The notes under the pieces were generated by a model, which saw nothing but the letters and a program-made list of their open reading frames with translations, searched no databases and was not told where the DNA came from. DNA of 64,000 nucleotides. It comes from an uncultured virus (IMG/VR IMGVR_UViG_3300037963_002172) (Duplodnaviria; Heunggongvirae; Uroviricota; Caudoviricetes). The stretch lies in the IMG/VR virus record IMGVR_UViG_3300037963_002172, one strand, 5' to 3'. The translations under genes were made by a program, and so were the position numbers. Shown here in pieces: positions 2,873-63,255 of this stretch. Numbering within the stretch: position 1 is the first letter of the stretch; each line of letters opens with the position of its first letter.

Positions 2873-4120
2873 ATGAATAGAAAAGAGAAAACTGAAAAGT
2901 TTGCCTCCAATGCATTACTATACATTATAATTGTATTTTTATTAGCAGCTTTTACATTTAGTGTACAAGCACAAGAGGCAGAAGCAGGAATTAAAAAAGA
3001 ATCATTGTTTAAAAAAGTATACAATGATTTTTTGCAATACGGTACTGCATATGTTGCAGGTAATATAAACAACCCGTATCAAAAACAATCAATAGATTAT
3101 GTAGTTAGAACAAACCCAAGCGGAAACTTATATGATGTTCCTATTGTTCAAGATGCTACTGAATATTATGAATTTGATTACAGATTTGGATTAGGTATTA
3201 GAAGAATTGCAAGATTTGATTATGAAAATAAAGAAAAAGCATATTATGATGGTACCGAAAAGAATGTAGCTTTATCTTCTCCAACAGCAGCTTTTGATGG
3301 TTGGGAGTATTTATTTCACTGGGAGAAAGAAAGGGAAAGAGGTGAGGTGTTTACAAATCACCGTTACTTTCTTAGGCATACTGGTAAAAATCACATTGTT
3401 AAACTCGAATCTAGAGAGGAAGGAAATGTAGGTTTTAAATATCAAAGTGCAGAGGTAAGAGCTAGATTACCAATAGGAAAAAAGTTTAGTATATCAGCAG
3501 GTTTAATTGCAAGAACACACGACCAAGCTTTTGGATATAATCCAGTTGAGATTTGGTTGAATGAAACTGATGAAGATGGATATGCATTAAACCCTTGGTA
3601 TACTTTAGGTTTTGAATATGGTTATGATGATATATATTATAATCAAACAGACCAGTTTGGTAATGAGGTTTCAGACTGGTACTGGATAGACCCTGACGGT
3701 AACATTGTGGCTCATACTGATTTAGAGTTTCGTGAGACAGTTTTTGCTGACTTGATGAACAGATTTAATAGAGAACAATGGGACTTGTTAGATGCATTTG
3801 CAGAAGTAGCACCTATTGTCGGAGCAGATTATTATTTATACCGTGATAGATTCTGGCTACATAGTTATGCTAATTACATATTGCCATTTCACAAATACTT
3901 TAAAGGTGATGAAGCGTTTAGTTATTTAAACAGAAATAATTGGGGGTTAGGCGGATTAAGACAAGACTCGGAGCTTGAACAATGGGACGACTACCAATTC
4001 GGTTTAATACTTGGATGGAACCTCACAAAAAAATTAGGTATTTTTGTAGAGGGAGAATACACAAAGTTTTGGGACACTGAAATTTTTAATTCAACAATCG
4101 GTTTAAATTTAGAGTTATGA
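2873..4120 (+). CDS. Putative outer-membrane beta-barrel protein
   Basis: Signal peptide ending VQA-Q; aromatic-rich alternating strands; C-terminal strand STIGLNLEL. Confidence 0.55.
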   Translation: MNRKEKTEKFASNALLYIIIVFLLAAFTFSVQAQEAEAGIKKESLFKKVYNDFLQYGTAYVAGNINNPYQKQSIDYVVRTNPSGNLYDVPIVQDATEYYEFDYRFGLGIRRIARFDYENKEKAYYDGTEKNVALSSPTAAFDGWEYLFHWEKERERGEVFTNHRYFLRHTGKNHIVKLESREEGNVGFKYQSAEVRARLPIGKKFSISAGLIARTHDQAFGYNPVEIWLNETDEDGYALNPWYTLGFEYGYDDIYYNQTDQFGNEVSDWYWIDPDGNIVAHTDLEFRETVFADLMNRFNREQWDLLDAFAEVAPIVGADYYLYRDRFWLHSYANYILPFHKYFKGDEAFSYLNRNNWGLGGLRQDSELEQWDDYQFGLILGWNLTKKLGIFVEGEYTKFWDTEIFNSTIGLNLEL

Positions 4121-56254: not shown

Positions 56255-57376
56255 TTAGCTAGTAACCTCTTGCTCTGAATACATTTCATTACACACACTG
56301 CAATGATAATTCTTGTTGCTGATTTCAGTTGGGTCGAACGTAACTTCTTCCAAGCATACATTACAATACTTTGTGTTATCATCTTCCTTATCGTGTATTA
56401 ACGATAGTGATGAGAACAATGATTGCTGCTGATGGTATCGAGTGTTCGGCTCGTACGTGTACCTCTGATAATTCGGTTTAGAATATTTTGGCATTGTAAA
56501 CCTTTGTCTCATAATTGGCTTTCTGATTGGAAAGCTTTTGTGATACTCCATACTTCCCATACTTCTATAACTTGTCTCTTTGTTAATAAAGTATATCCAA
56601 GCTGTCAAAATCGTGCCGCTGCCTAGCTTGATAGGTATTCGCTTGCGTTGATAAAACTGCGGGTGTCCCTCTAGTGAATCAAGTGCAGCAAAGGTATCGT
56701 TATTTACTTTGTAGACTTCTACTTCTACGTGGTGTCCATAACCGCTCTTGTCCAACAAGTAAGGTAGCCCGCTAATCACTAGCGGGTACTTGTCTCTTGT
56801 TGACCCTTTGCCAACGAATCGCTGTCCATACAATAAGTGATGATTGTTGCCGCCTTTTTTAAGCGTGCCATACACCGCTACAACATTGTGCTGCAACACA
56901 TTGGGTTTGGAAAACCATACACCATTGTGCTTAGTCCACTTTTCTTTGTTGTAGATTTCGTATTGTCTGTTGCGTTTGTTGTAAGTAATAAATCTAGAAT
57001 CGTGCTGACCTAGTACTGCTCTTCATTGCGGCCTAGCAATAGTCCCTAGTTCGATAGCTAGTTGCTTGCTGTCGCACATATCGTGAGAGCCATATCCCGC
57101 AATAGTCCCATTGTGCATTAGTAACTCGTTAGTGTTGTTACCACATACAAAAGGGTGCGTGTTTGCTTTGTTTACTTTACCTCTTGTTGCTAATCTGAAA
57201 TGAGCAATGTAGGGTCTGTTGTTGTCAAGTACTTTCCAGTCTTTTGATTGGTAGTATTTAACTTCATTGGTATCCAGAAAAATTACGCCAAGTCCGTGAG
57301 GATTGATGCGTGAAGAATTTTTAAGTATCTCTGGCGATACTTGTTTGTCTTTCGACTTTACAATAATTATACACAT
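56255..57376 (-). pseudogene. Class-II glutamine amidotransferase-GGCT fusion interrupted by one in-frame TGA (57023-57025)
   Basis: MCII, NPHG.G, HFRLATRG, HPF, HNG; after the TGA the frame continues ...GVWFSK...VAVYGTLKKG (GGCT) and ends in a CxxC...CxxC ribbon. Confidence 0.75.
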
Positions 57377-57581: not shown

Positions 57582-57599
57582 GGTCGTGTACGACTAATT
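57580..57599. promoter_or_regulatory. Palindromic operator-like motif, copy 2
   Basis: TTGGTCGT-GT-ACGACTAATT. Confidence 0.6.
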
Positions 57600-58287
57600 A
57601 GCTGATATCATATCTGCCTACATAGGTGCATTCTTCGGGTAGTGTTACACTATCCACTTCGATTACTACTCTGTCGCTACATCTGTAAAGCATATCCATT
57701 TCATTTCTGTTAAACACTACGTGTCCATTTTCATAATGGTATTCTCTTAACTTTTTACCATTTGCATATCTACTTCCTGATAAATCTTTACTTCTTAATC
57801 TGTATTTCTTTATCATACGAATTATAAAATCGTGGTCTCTAGTGTCTGAAACGTATCTCTTTTCCATTAGGTTGTTTGCTTCAGATTGTGCGTCAAAAAT
57901 TAGCGGCAATACATTTTCCACCATATGCACTTTGCTCCAGTTTAACTCCATATACGTGGTTGAGCTTTGTCTCAACTTTGGGTGTTGAGAGTGCAAAAAC
58001 AATTGTTTAAGCGGTTTAAATTGCGTGGCATTTAATCTGACTGTTTGACTATTCCAAACTCCAGTTCCTATCGGAAATGATAACCCCTTTGCTTCCCAGT
58101 TTGCGTAATAAGTGTAGCCACTTCTTTGACTGTCTGACAAAGTTTTAACAAATTTACATCTGAAATGTTCTTCTTTGTGCGGTGTAATTTGCTGAAAGAA
58201 GAAAGATTTCAAAACAATTTTTAGATTGTTTCTTTGTGCTTTTGTAAGCTTTATGCGTGAGTGCATTAATCTTGTGTGTGTGTTCAT
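57598..58287 (-). CDS. Hypothetical early protein
   Basis: ORF track, 229 aa. Confidence 0.75.
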   Translation of the reverse strand: MNTHTRLMHSRIKLTKAQRNNLKIVLKSFFFQQITPHKEEHFRCKFVKTLSDSQRSGYTYYANWEAKGLSFPIGTGVWNSQTVRLNATQFKPLKQLFLHSQHPKLRQSSTTYMELNWSKVHMVENVLPLIFDAQSEANNLMEKRYVSDTRDHDFIIRMIKKYRLRSKDLSGSRYANGKKLREYHYENGHVVFNRNEMDMLYRCSDRVVIEVDSVTLPEECTYVGRYDIS

Positions 58288-58311
58288 TTTATTTAATTTA
58301 AATTATTAATT

Positions 58312-58360
58312 CTGTTTCTGCCTTTTGGCTTCATCAGTAGCAATACACATTGCTAAACAG
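58312..58360 (-). ncRNA. Type III hammerhead ribozyme, variant with A10.1-A11.1
   Basis: Minus strand CUG-UU|UAGCAAU-GUGU-AUUGCUA-CUGAUGA-A-GCC-AAAA-GGC-A-GAAA-CAG: complete core and three stems; intergenic. Confidence 0.8.
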
Positions 58361-58388
58361 GAGCAGTTTTAACAGGTGCTCAGCTGTG
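58361..58388 (-). ncRNA. Predicted H-type pseudoknot abutting the hammerhead
   Basis: ACAG-cu-GAGCA-c-CUGU-uaaaac-UGCUC. Confidence 0.55.
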
Positions 58389-58392
58389 CGAA

Positions 58393-59469
58393 TCATCTTC
58401 TGCGGGCAAATTCGATTGCTCTTGCGTTCCATAATCTGAACGCTTTAGGCGTTGTAATTGGCCTAACAGTGTTGGCATCGAATCGATTATAAATCCAAAT
58501 AAACTCCATTACTTTTTCATTAATCTTGTTGCTTTTTAGCATTCTTCTGAACGCTTTTGACAATTCGATTAACTCGTTTACTTTGGTTTCATTGTCGTTA
58601 TACATCGACAATAAAATCGGCTTTGCTTTCTTAATAAACTTCGCATAAGTCCCTCTATCATTGACCGCAAAATCTACTAGCAGCTGCATTAACTTATATC
58701 TGTTAATCATTTGCTTTACACTGGTAAAGCGGCTCCACAATCTGAATTCAAGTAATTTGTTACCTGATTTCTCGAATATAGGTTGGTACTTCGTACGCTC
58801 TTGATTAATTCTAGTCGAATAGCTTTCAGCGTTCGTTCTAGCGGTTATGTTATTGCAGCAATACTGGTTAGCTAATCTTTTACGATTAAGTGCGTAAAGT
58901 ATTGCGTAATAAGGCCTCATCAGTGCATTTAACTCGCTTGCGGTGTGCTCTGTGCTCGATACTGTAATATGTCCCCCACATCTATAAGACCCAGTTTGAT
59001 TCATCTCATCGCTTTGGCTGTAAGCTTCATCAATTAAAGTGTCGGCCTGATACATCAGGTTAAACATTTTGTTTCTCCATACAGATGAAGGCACAAGAGG
59101 AAGAATATTTGTAATGGCCTCAAGACCGCAGCTGCCATCTCTTTCAATTCCTTTCATTAACTGGCAAAAATTTTGCAGTTCGCTGCCTCTCAAAACCTCT
59201 CTAGATATTCTCGATTTCTCGACTTCCATACCGATAGTAAATTTTGCTTTGTAAACGTATTGACCGCTCTCGCAAACTCTCGATATATTACCCGCTCTTT
59301 GTCTTGCATTCAGGCCTCTTAAATCAACTTCAAAAGGCGTGCTCGCATAGTTTTCAGGGTTTGGGCTTTGTTGATATCCCTGAACAACTGTTCTAGAGAC
59401 TGTACGACCGCTGCTATTTGCAGCTGTTAAGCTTAATTTGTCGTACTTTTTTCCGATTAAATTTTTCAT
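58393..59469 (-). CDS. Putative amidoligase (glutamine-synthetase-fold COOH-NH2 ligase, Amidoligase_2-like)
   Basis: FTIGMEVE, E.DGS...E, CGGHI.VS and LEFR motifs; neighbours GATase-II/GGCT. Confidence 0.8.
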   Translation of the reverse strand: MKNLIGKKYDKLSLTAANSSGRTVSRTVVQGYQQSPNPENYASTPFEVDLRGLNARQRAGNISRVCESGQYVYKAKFTIGMEVEKSRISREVLRGSELQNFCQLMKGIERDGSCGLEAITNILPLVPSSVWRNKMFNLMYQADTLIDEAYSQSDEMNQTGSYRCGGHITVSSTEHTASELNALMRPYYAILYALNRKRLANQYCCNNITARTNAESYSTRINQERTKYQPIFEKSGNKLLEFRLWSRFTSVKQMINRYKLMQLLVDFAVNDRGTYAKFIKKAKPILLSMYNDNETKVNELIELSKAFRRMLKSNKINEKVMEFIWIYNRFDANTVRPITTPKAFRLWNARAIEFARRR

Positions 59470-60391: not shown

Positions 60392-60413
60392 AATTGGTCG
60401 TATACGACTAATT
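60392..60413. promoter_or_regulatory. Palindromic operator-like motif, copy 3
   Basis: AATTGGTCGT-AT-ACGACTAATT. Confidence 0.6.
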
Positions 60414-61385: not shown

Positions 61386-63014
61386 ATGAACCCACAAGCT
61401 GGAGGCTATACGCCCAAAGACCTGAGATTTGGAGAATCAGGCAGAACTTCACTAATAAACGGAATCACTAAAATTGCTAACGCAGTTAAATCTACACTCG
61501 GCCCACGAGGACATACAGTATTGATTGAGTCCCCGAGTCACACACGAGGTATGACTATAACGAAAGACGGAGTTACTGTAGCTAAGTCAGTAAACTTAAT
61601 TCATCCAGTAGAAAACCTTGCGGTTACAATGATGAAAGAAGCTGCATCTAATACAGCGACTACTGCTGGTGATGGGACTACTACAGCTATTGTATTGACA
61701 GAAGCATTAGTAAAAGCTGGTAATGATATAATTAAAGAGAATCATAATAGAACAGAAATACTACGAAGTGTTAACTATGAGGTAAAGAATATTATTAAGA
61801 GTTTAAAGTCATATTCAAAACCAATTAGTAAAAGAAGATTAAAAGACGTAGCTATTATTTCAGCGAATGGGGATAAAGAGATAGGTACTATAATATCTAA
61901 CACATACAACGAGGTTGGTAAGAACGGTATAGTAACAGTCGAGCGTTCACAAACAAGTGATACATATAATGAGATTACTAACGGTATCAAGGTAGAGAAA
62001 GGTATGAACTCTCCATTGTTTATCAATGACCAGAAAAAAGATGAGTGTGTTTTAGAGGATTGTTATATATTAGTATGTGATGCGTCAGTAGACAACATAC
62101 TTAATATTGAAAACATATTAAAACCTATAATACAAGAAAACAAAAAACTATTGATGATATGTCCAACGAGTGAGAATGTATTGAATACTCTTGCAGCTAA
62201 TGTTGTAAAACGTAAACTCAATGTATGTAATATTAATCCTCCGCAGTTTGGATATAAACAAACGGAACTAATGCAAGACATTGCGGTCTCTGTAAATGCA
62301 AAATACTTTTCAGAAAAGACTGGTGATGATTTAAGCTTAATTACTTTTGGTGATTTAGGTCACGCTGCTAAGGTGATAGTTAGTAGAGACTCTACAGTCA
62401 TCATTAAAGACCCCGAAGTTACTGATGCTGTAGTAGAGGAAAGAGTAGAACAACTGTGGGAAAGTCATAAGTTAACGACAAAAAAAGCAGATAAAGATTT
62501 TATCTTGTCTCGAATAGCATCATTAACTGGTGGGATAGGTGTTATATATGTAGGAGGTCAAACTGATATTGAACAAAAAGAATTATACGATAGAGTAGAT
62601 GATGCAGTATGTGCAGTACGTTCAGCATTTGCTGAGGGAATACTACCAGGCGGTGGAACAGCATTGTATCATATAGCTAAAGTATACGATACCCTAAGTG
62701 ACAAAGAAGAAAAAATTTCGAAAAAAATTGCTTACGCAATTTTAGGTAAAGCACTGAAAGCACCTCTTCAACAAATATTAACTAATGCAGGTCTAAACGA
62801 TGAAGAGATATATGAAGGCATCTTAGAACCTAAACACGGATACGATGTAAAGAATGAAATGTATGGAGACTTAGTAGAGCTCGGTGTAATAGACCCACTC
62901 AAAGTTACTAAGCACGCATTGAAAAATTCTGTATCAGTTGCAACCACTATACTAAGTACTAACGCTATAATAACAATGGCTAGAACATATGAAGCAAATG
63001 AAACCTCTAAATAA
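61386..63014 (+). CDS. groEL: Chaperonin GroEL
   Basis: TLGPRG, ITKDGVTVAK, AGDGTTTA, GILPGGG and GVIDPLKV motifs. Confidence 0.97.
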   Translation: MNPQAGGYTPKDLRFGESGRTSLINGITKIANAVKSTLGPRGHTVLIESPSHTRGMTITKDGVTVAKSVNLIHPVENLAVTMMKEAASNTATTAGDGTTTAIVLTEALVKAGNDIIKENHNRTEILRSVNYEVKNIIKSLKSYSKPISKRRLKDVAIISANGDKEIGTIISNTYNEVGKNGIVTVERSQTSDTYNEITNGIKVEKGMNSPLFINDQKKDECVLEDCYILVCDASVDNILNIENILKPIIQENKKLLMICPTSENVLNTLAANVVKRKLNVCNINPPQFGYKQTELMQDIAVSVNAKYFSEKTGDDLSLITFGDLGHAAKVIVSRDSTVIIKDPEVTDAVVEERVEQLWESHKLTTKKADKDFILSRIASLTGGIGVIYVGGQTDIEQKELYDRVDDAVCAVRSAFAEGILPGGGTALYHIAKVYDTLSDKEEKISKKIAYAILGKALKAPLQQILTNAGLNDEEIYEGILEPKHGYDVKNEMYGDLVELGVIDPLKVTKHALKNSVSVATTILSTNAIITMARTYEANETSK

Positions 63015-63255
63015 ATATATAGCAGTAGATATTATCGAAGAAGAAATAACTACAGACTCAGGATTAATATTGTCAGACAAAGACAAAGACTCATTACGTT
63101 ATCGTAAAGCTGTAGTCATAGAACCAGGTACAGAGGTTACAACTCTATCTAAGGGAGATACTATCTATTATGATAGTAGGTCAGGATACACTATGTTGAT
63201 TGACAATGTAAAGTGTACAATTATTTCTGAGAGAGACGTTGTAGTTGTTGTCTAG
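62989..63255 (+). CDS. groES: Co-chaperonin GroES
   Basis: MKPL...TDSGLIL...AVVIEPG..V....GD.I.Y...I.ERDV. Confidence 0.9.
   Translation: MKQMKPLNKYIAVDIIEEEITTDSGLILSDKDKDSLRYRKAVVIEPGTEVTTLSKGDTIYYDSRSGYTMLIDNVKCTIISERDVVVVV

Follow-up and report, generated by a model that had tools for sequence, protein, structure and literature searches.

The window, the whole stretch of 64,000 nucleotides that we analysed, encodes a portal, a virion protein, GroEL, an exonuclease and a primase-helicase, which marks it as a segment of a phage genome. On its minus strand, a gene for an amidoligase-like protein precedes a gene to which neither Pfam nor PHROG assigned a family, and two further ORFs with similarity to enzymes of glutamine and gamma-glutamyl chemistry follow (Table 1). 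When the ORFs and sequence were measured again, the stop codon of the first gene (58395-58393) and the start codon of the second (58287) were separated by a 105-nt gap, as in the original prediction, which had placed a pseudoknot and a self-cleaving hammerhead ribozyme in this gap.

Table 1. Coordinates of the genes and RNA elements at the locus (window numbering)
Feature	Position	Strand	Basis
Upstream gene, 358 aa, amidoligase-like (carboxylate-amine ligase / glutamine synthetase fold)	58393..59469	-	ORF, predicted fold, invariant residues
Stop codon TGA of upstream gene	58395-58393	-	ORF
Spacer, stop codon to first paired base, 5 nt	58388..58392	-	sequence
H-type pseudoknot, 27 nt	58361..58387	-	sequence, relatives, covariation
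Pseudoknot P1, 4 bp	58387-58384/58375-58372	-	sequence
Pseudoknot P2, 5 bp	58381-58377/58365-58361	-	sequence
Type III hammerhead	58312..58360	-	sequence, relatives, covariation
Hammerhead stem III	58360-58357/58315-58312	-	CUG/CAG + U16.1-A15.1
Hammerhead cleavage triplet GUU	58358-58356	-	sequence
Predicted cleavage site, 3' of U17	58355..58356	-	hammerhead numbering
Hammerhead stem I, 7 bp	58355-58349/58344-58338	-	sequence
Hammerhead core	58337-58331	-	sequence
Hammerhead A10.1	58330	-	sequence
Hammerhead stem II, 3 bp	58329-58327/58322-58320	-	sequence
Hammerhead A11.1	58319	-	sequence
Hammerhead GAAA	58318-58315	-	sequence
A/U-rich leader, 24 nt, without Shine-Dalgarno sequence	58288..58311	-	sequence
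Downstream gene, 229 aa, no family assigned (Pfam, PHROG)	57598..58287	-	ORF
Class II glutamine amidotransferase-like ORF (context)	57023..57376	-	GATase_4 E 1.3e-6
Gamma-glutamyl cyclotransferase (context)	56255..56899	-	GGACT E 3e-24; phrog_2520

The upstream protein had no match in Pfam or PHROG, none of 31 relatives matched in Pfam, and a sequence search of solved structures with its profile gave nothing significant. Its predicted model (pLDDT 88.5) matched glutamine synthetases and YbdK at E values of 2e-5 to 1e-3, with low TM-scores of 0.26-0.37. Residues E82, E84, E117, H167, E241 and R243 (E-x-E, E, H, E-x-R) were invariant in 53 sequences of the protein, which joined an Atlas cluster at a score of 0.96, with Amidoligase_2 found on 12% of the cluster members. 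Together with the amidotransferase and gamma-glutamyl cyclotransferase neighbours, the predicted fold, invariant residues and Atlas cluster make 'amidoligase-like' a fair version of the earlier 'amidoligase' label. Gene order is what suggests that this mRNA may be early, and a sigma-70 promoter scan gave 24 sites compared with 22.7 in shuffles. The host is probably a flavobacterium, although the indication is weak: 15 of the 24 phage records that the primase matched have Flavobacteriaceae hosts, and in the matches listed the identity was only 25-40% and covered part of the protein. A phage-encoded GroEL and a GroES-sized ORF (61386-63255) adjoin a divergent gene arm, and a palindrome at 60392-60413, upstream of the minus-strand gene arm, could be an operator or an RNA hairpin; 12-base palindromes resembling it follow stop codons in L007, L009, L696 and L709.

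Every element of the predicted hammerhead was present on the minus strand base for base, including the stems, the GUU triplet, the core, the GAAA and an A·A at position 10.1-11.1. The site has a CUGANGA and GAAA core with A15.1-U16.1, an NUH triplet and loop-closed stems I and II, and its ends lie in stem III; in place of the consensus G10.1-C11.1 pair it has A·A. A loose type III descriptor that tolerated a mismatch at 10.1-11.1 found this site as its sole match on both strands of the 64 kb, and found nothing in 200 of 200 dinucleotide shuffles. The Rfam search that the original prediction proposed as a check returned no match for the window at the gathering score. A 1.1-kb segment around the site gave no match at E<=10, and a 111-nt segment gave a mis-registered Hammerhead_3 match of 14.1 bits (E 1.3), compared with a cut-off of 48.5 bits for RF00008. 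Hammerhead_3 scores of relatives reached at most 47.5 bits in one test set, and one other relative passed with 50.5 bits; E<=1 was reached by 0/3 A·A loci, 2/11 U·U loci and 4/6 G-C loci. By its predicted anatomy, the ribozyme is a type III hammerhead that is off consensus at 10.1-11.1 and falls below the Rfam threshold. The predicted cut lies 68 nt from the downstream start codon, and in most relatives the distance from ribozyme end to start codon is 20-34 nt.

Parts of the region occur as contigs in three metatranscriptome runs. Together, the contigs of run X1 extend over the upstream gene and the cassette and into the downstream gene, with DNA carry-over possible and with contig depth that cannot rank the genes. 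The predicted cut falls in the overlap of two of them (58128-58361 and 58332-58524), neither of which has 31 letters on both sides of it, and contigs cannot show RNA ends.

Directly 5' of the hammerhead we located the H-type pseudoknot of the original prediction, with P1 and P2 where they had been described. Its joins are a 2-nt loop, a 1-nt L2 and a 6-nt A-rich L3, and both stems lie wholly 5' of stem III. The 5-nt spacer from the stop codon matches the family mode of 5-6 nt and the 4-9 nt found for hairpins at the same place in relatives (below). No further copy was found in the window, which is itself part of the model, so that its own score is circular; a search of five virus records, two of which are the same record, gave one strong match in each. 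Folding predictions for this strain revealed a nested alternative of -23.0 kcal/mol, in which the last codons and the 5' strand of P2 pair with stem I and the core. The predicted probability of stem I in the window was 0.07, and rose to 0.95 once the pseudoknot was held apart. Because of this alternative fold, cutting in this strain may depend on the pseudoknot folding first. We rejected a conserved folding switch: the alternative fold is specific to the strain, and the close relatives L003, L005 and L008, which lack the trap, form stem I without masking of the pseudoknot (0.95-0.99).

Of ten close loci, seven had the cassette after the same gene, two had it upstream of the gene and one lacked it in the available stretch. 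We measured covariation in 14 cassettes chosen from 30 pseudoknot-plus-hammerhead sequences. In these, 94.9% of cells paired, compared with 71.3% in shuffles (0/500) and 24-47% in slid controls. Changes on both sides were seen in all four P1 pairs, 6/7 stem I pairs and 3/3 stem II pairs, and in 1/5 P2 pairs. The covariation test set out in the original prediction thereby came out positive for ribozyme and pseudoknot alike in related phages. Stem III was invariant in the 14 cassettes, and its near-invariance and that of P2 arise partly because the search pattern fixed one strand of each. In a set selected by protein, CCG/CGG forms of stem III occurred, as did a G-C to A-U change in P2 (L715, L718 and L769). 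In 71 of 81 loci of the phage group, we found type III hammerheads within 2.5 kb, in many cases more than one. As judged from these comparisons, the putative ribozyme is conserved and under selection.

Other self-cleaving elements and genes were seen near such sites. Candidate type I hammerheads stand in the same gene arm in L730, L741, L746, L747 and L750, among the matches listed. A RAGATH-1 hammerhead lies 285 nt upstream of a pseudoknot copy (L577:1309-1385), a second type III hammerhead lies about 200 nt upstream of a pseudoknot-hammerhead (L632:1218-1272), and a twister-P3 lies just upstream of an amidoligase match (L717:2356-2433). Anti-restriction genes lie directly downstream or upstream of pseudoknot-hammerhead cassettes (L030:1587-2093, L036:2095-3024); in the accessible part of Perreault 2011 (PMC3088659), ardA adjoins a hammerhead similarly.

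The position 10.1-11.1 varied in a restricted way. Among 54 distinct stem sets we counted G-C in 27, U·U in 20, A·A in 5 and a U inserted before G-C in 2, and none with A-U, U-A or C-G. With A·A in 5 of the 54, the A·A noted in the original prediction is a recurring state with unchanged spacing: its presence stands, and it is better described as a variant of a subfamily than as a one-off. It also occurs in a hammerhead with a hairpin cap (L756), and in the comparison of the window with L003, stem I is changed on both sides and the core and A·A are kept. N7 at position 10.1 binds a metal ion, and an A would retain this N7. The cleavage triplets in 53 relatives were GUC (31), GUA (17), GUU (4) and AUC (1). 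GUU is a slower triplet, and because it is combined here with A·A, the window ribozyme may be slow; on sequence grounds the window copy is probably slower than the G-C/GUC majority. In L019, L028, L042, L065, L072 and L456, the hammerhead core is followed by one additional base before an intact G10.1-C11.1 pair; these hammerheads stand behind the same pseudoknot, some of them in gut phage contigs.

For an unbiased set of loci we used the profile of the upstream protein alone and took the best 80 of 222 confirmed loci. These gave 68 distinct loci, where distinct means not identical, many being close strains. In 53 of the 68 distinct loci among these best 80 of 222, the stop codon was followed by a type III hammerhead at a distance of no more than 150 nt. 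The slot 5' of these 53 hammerheads contained a hairpin with a folding energy of -8 kcal/mol or better at 44 loci, the same pseudoknot as in the window at 8 and weak structure at 1. Of the 44 hairpins, 42 start 4-9 nt after the stop codon. The 8 pseudoknot loci represent about 3 clades, and two of them are nearly identical to the window. The remaining 15 of the 68 distinct loci were scored without a hammerhead; one of these (L762) was misframed in the scoring and has a hairpin and a hammerhead. A hammerhead with a core change was found in L721, and loci without the ribozyme included L702, L704, L705 and L709, whose slot contains terminator-like hairpins with U runs. In L749, L757 and L759, tRNA-like folds with a T-arm occupy the ribozyme slot (about 3360-3500) after the amidoligase stop; neither ARAGORN nor Rfam called them, and they are possible RNase P sites.

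A second set was collected with the ribozyme pattern alone and comprised 31 good ribozymes from 121 stretches among the matches listed. A hairpin of this stability lay directly 5' in 25/31 (median z -3.7), compared with 2/31 downstream and 7/31 further upstream. In most cases the slot fold abuts stem III with 0-2 nt between them, and some of the slot hairpins in this set have U runs. From these sequences, hairpin and pseudoknot appear to be interchangeable caps, of which the plain hairpin is the commoner. The originally proposed two-part mRNA-processing device agrees with this comparative picture, in which a covarying ribozyme stands at the orthologous site in 53/68 loci and the 5' fold is nearly always stable.

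Several further structures were observed in related loci. In L712 and L727, the slot (about 3400-3510) is taken by a long hairpin common to both, which ends in a conserved GUAGAAAC word and has no Rfam match. A different possible pseudoknot precedes the amidotransferase gene in L772 and L775 (about 3530-3560), and L772 has a DUF805b motif at 1684-1718. In freshwater relatives (L708-L771), many ribozymes are preceded by a 16-base near-palindrome that makes up the cap hairpin or the core of it, and the same near-palindrome occurs at many intergenic sites, often several per genome.

We also scanned viral contigs, metagenomes and genomes with a pattern of the conserved pseudoknot bases, P1 lying mostly outside the pattern. 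A P1 of at least 4 bp was present in 114 of 143 distinct viral copies among the matches listed, compared with 15.5 when partners were shuffled (maximum 27 in 1000 shuffles). None of 24 matches from an independent scan fell within the 143-copy sample, which is therefore a small part of the whole. A hammerhead stood behind the pseudoknot in only 2 of 138 sampled phage copies with P1 (4 loose matches, 2 real on inspection). The pseudoknot is thus placed 5' of the cut as the original prediction had it, but as a part of the device it is neither special to the ribozyme nor irreplaceable, plain hairpins taking its place. A role as part of the catalytic fold was rejected, the pseudoknot mostly occurring alone, without a ribozyme.

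The placement of these copies in phage genomes was similar to that in the window. Of 71 intergenic phage copies, 59 lay between co-directional genes, 3 before a convergent gene and 5 behind a divergent gene, and 79 of the 143 copies had a start codon at most 120 nt downstream. We measured stop distances in those 127 of 270 distinct matches that had P1, sufficient flanking sequence and a stop codon no more than 120 nt upstream: the inner C lay 7-12 nt after the stop in 69/127, and closer in just 2. The putative motif is, by these measures, widespread 4-10 nt after stop codons and mostly without a ribozyme. The preceding stops were TAA (52), TAG (15) and TGA (13) (n=80), with no shared open frame beyond them. 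Because the stops are mostly TAA and no frame continues, recoding by readthrough or frameshift was excluded. At least 5 U in the 8 nt right after P2 occurred in 40/138 stand-alone copies, compared with 14.7 in shuffles (maximum 28 in 500 shuffles), and at least 6 U in 22/138. A tRNA was the next feature in 15/143 copies, 10 of them Asp and likely from related phages; RNase P processing of a following tRNA would also leave the pseudoknot on a 3' end.

The motif or a close variant lies between genes in cultured phages of Synechococcus, Mycobacterium, Paracoccus, Staphylococcus and a deep-sea thermophile, S-H35, Labelle, ParKuw1 and D6E being among the phages with it, and the whole pseudoknot-hammerhead cassette was absent from the cultured phages searched. 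Of 75 pattern matches in bacterial genomes, 34 lacked P1 and 28 of these 34 were in ORFs, so about half of the matches there are chance. The pseudoknot has no Rfam 15 family and no description in the literature searched, a search that left some motif-survey supplements outside it, and no paper in that literature joined a hammerhead ribozyme with an amidoligase. In bacterial genome contigs from Aminicenantes, Thermodesulfobacteriota and Deltaproteobacteria records (L571, L597, L621, L616 and L644), the pseudoknot overlaps the UGA stop of a cysteine-containing ORF of about 20 codons, near position 1000; three of these have a terminator-like hairpin 15-40 nt further on.

Building on the anatomy, covariation, exchange of slot elements and spacing observed here, we propose that the locus is a processing cassette that gives a terminator-like, structure-capped 3' end while transcription continues, a reading that we hold to be probable. 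The cassette begins with a stop codon and a 5-nt spacer; the compact stable fold and the type III hammerhead come next, and an A/U-rich leader connects them to the following start codon. The polymerase would read through it, and the hammerhead, whose core is intact and conserved, would cut itself after GUU. The upstream message would then end in the pseudoknot and 5 unpaired nucleotides with a 2',3'-cyclic phosphate, like an end made by a terminator. A tail of 5 nt would be too short for 3'-to-5' exonucleases to load well, and the capped end would be expected to resist them. Hammerhead cleavage chemistry leaves a 5'-OH on the downstream product; the downstream message would start with this 5'-OH and the folded rest of the ribozyme. 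The outcome would be separately stable messages from one promoter. A merely mechanical cap does not need an almost invariant P2, which makes tertiary contacts or a binding partner for P2 likely, as far as sequence conservation can indicate. With its lower limit of 4-5 nt, the distance from the stop corresponds to where a terminating ribosome would have its edge, and would be explained just as well by a fold that acts on the ribosome. Against the cassette reading stand the small number of pseudoknot clades at the site, about three, the sequence conservation of P2 and of the loops, the competing fold in this strain, and the 136 of 138 sampled phage copies that have no hammerhead behind them.

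A ribosome-facing role is the alternative to which we give most weight, while thinking it unlikely. The fold after the stop, placed at the mRNA entry channel of a terminating ribosome, would block onward scanning or re-initiation or aid recycling, and the ribozyme would be a second, independent uncoupler. The hard lower limit of about 4-5 nt, shared by pseudoknots and hairpins, argues for this, as do the co-directional genes around 59/71 intergenic phage copies and, in the accessible text of PMC10520033 and PMC10321173, the stalling of ribosomes by coremin pseudoknots. However, the same limit is expected if the terminating ribosome merely must not melt the fold, the cut alone already uncouples the genes, and the mostly TAA stops (52/80) without a shared frame leave no recoding. 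We consider it distinctly improbable that the fold instead serves the ribozyme, insulating it from upstream sequence and stacking on the 4-bp stem III to help folding. The 0-2 nt between fold and stem III in most cases would suit such a helper, and so would the rise of predicted stem I from 0.07 to 0.95 on masking the pseudoknot in this strain; yet a hammerhead stands behind only 2/138 sampled copies, and L003, L005 and L008 form stem I (0.95-0.99) without any masking. Marginally less credible to us is a leaky intrinsic terminator, pseudoknotted here, with a ribozyme that cuts read-through transcripts at the same place. The U-rich tails (at least 5 U in 8 nt in 40/138 copies, 14.7 in shuffles), the U runs on some slot hairpins and the terminator-like hairpins in the slot of some relatives point towards it, whereas the window copy has no U run after P2, 6 U in 8 occurs in just 22/138, and termination would come before the ribozyme is made.

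We rate the remaining two readings lower still. That the pseudoknot is a block to 5'-to-3' exonucleases like coremin (xrRNA-C/WCC), protecting downstream RNA, we judge very unlikely. Size and layout are the same in the accessible text on coremin (PMC6546385, PMC10321173), with a short first hairpin, a conserved A-rich spacer and pairing of loop with spacer, and a start codon follows within 120 nt in 79/143 copies. By contrast, a cut 5 nt behind the pseudoknot would leave nothing to protect, a second hairpin is not enriched (9/138 compared with 10-14 at control offsets), and RNase J was not found in 61/61 sampled genomes of Flavobacteriaceae, the putative host family, in a search whose cut-off 8/14 controls passed. 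Least probable of all, in our estimate, is that the window ribozyme has degenerated and lost useful cleavage activity. A·A, the GUU triplet, the competing fold and the core-mutated copy in L721 could be read as signs of decay; but A·A recurs with different stems in 5/54 stem sets and with a hairpin cap in L756, and stem I has changed on both sides relative to L003 while core and A·A were kept.

Comparison with known systems draws on the accessible portions of the papers cited. Hammerheads flank genes in the operons of prophages, and tandem copies cut the native polycistronic RNA in vitro (Perreault 2011, PMC3088659), where a weak stem III and a natural U10.1-U11.1 mismatch are also reported. 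The window ribozyme resembles these and RF00008 in its core, three stems, open stem III, NUH triplet and intergenic place in a phage operon, and its relatives share the presence of several per genome (PMC3088659). Unlike in those hammerheads, the pseudoknot of the window is a separate domain 5' of stem III and not a contact of loop I with stem II (PMC3088659). Section 8 of PMC3088659 does not name A·A at 10.1-11.1 among its variants, and no report of it was found elsewhere in the literature searched. RAGATH-1 (RF03152) similarly has a 5' domain with an A-rich linker before a hammerhead core in phage-like DNA, but its model has the type I topology and a stem II of a single pair, and did not match the window. 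The pseudoknot cassette is also not a permutation of the kind described in PMC10085705.

Coremin xrRNA-C / xrRNA-WCC are like the window motif in being compact and H-type, with a first stem of 3-5 bp, a conserved A-rich spacer and a place just after a stop codon (PMC6546385, PMC10520033, PMC10321173). They differ in belonging to eukaryotic RNA viruses and in having a 4-8 nt loop and about 3 pairs, compared with 5 in the window motif. Coremin blocks 5'-to-3' decay and needs a second hairpin, whereas such a hairpin is not enriched in the phage motif; in the window, stem III could act as one only before the cut. The accessible part of a paper on class 3 xrRNA makes no mention of phage (PMC12397905). 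GP20-b (RF03003) is the nearest catalogued prokaryotic relative, the first stem of its model having the same layout. Weak matches of 18-21 bits (cut-off 36.2) were found in 2/3 scaffold-type loci, where they start on copies of the pseudoknot that precede scaffold genes. The scaffold gene is likewise preceded by the motif, or by a variant close to it, in cultured phages 37 and D6E. Unlike the phage motif, GP20-b has a different P2 sequence and a second hairpin and has been described as cis-regulatory for GP20 (PMC10690425), and it had no match in the window. Finally, selective RNA processing and stabilisation (PMC4423207, PMC5927463) similarly sets the ratios of operon messages by a cut and a 3' stem-loop on the upstream gene; there a host endonuclease cuts, whereas in the window the RNA itself encodes the predicted cut, and a pseudoknot can take the role of the cap.

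That hammerheads occur in phage operons is already known (Perreault 2011, PMC3088659); the literature searched described neither the A·A variant nor the pseudoknot family, nor a slot with interchangeable caps. The accessible part of a 2019 paper (PMC6765202) called the role of ribozymes near phage genes largely elusive, with operon processing merely suggested. A fixed layout at one orthologous site, with exchangeable hairpin, pseudoknot and terminator-like elements, offers a concrete and cheap test of operon processing. The analysis also exposes a hammerhead subfamily under the Rfam cut-off, as well as an uncatalogued pseudoknot so small that it might find use as a compact stabiliser of RNA. 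More broadly, the pseudoknot might be a bacterial and phage counterpart of coremin, a sequence-specific fold of 27 nt that resists nucleases mechanically and that phages of many host phyla use as a universal end-cap. Cap and hammerhead together might then represent the general role of ribozymes in phage operons, making terminator-like ends without termination, with variants at 10.1-11.1 and in the triplet tuning the fraction cut; we put forward this wider reading tentatively and think it doubtful. At this locus, the arrangement is real and conserved and is well supported by comparison as a processing cassette in which the RNA would cut itself and shield the new end. It suggests how a marine phage could let transcription continue and still provide one gene with a protected message end of its own.
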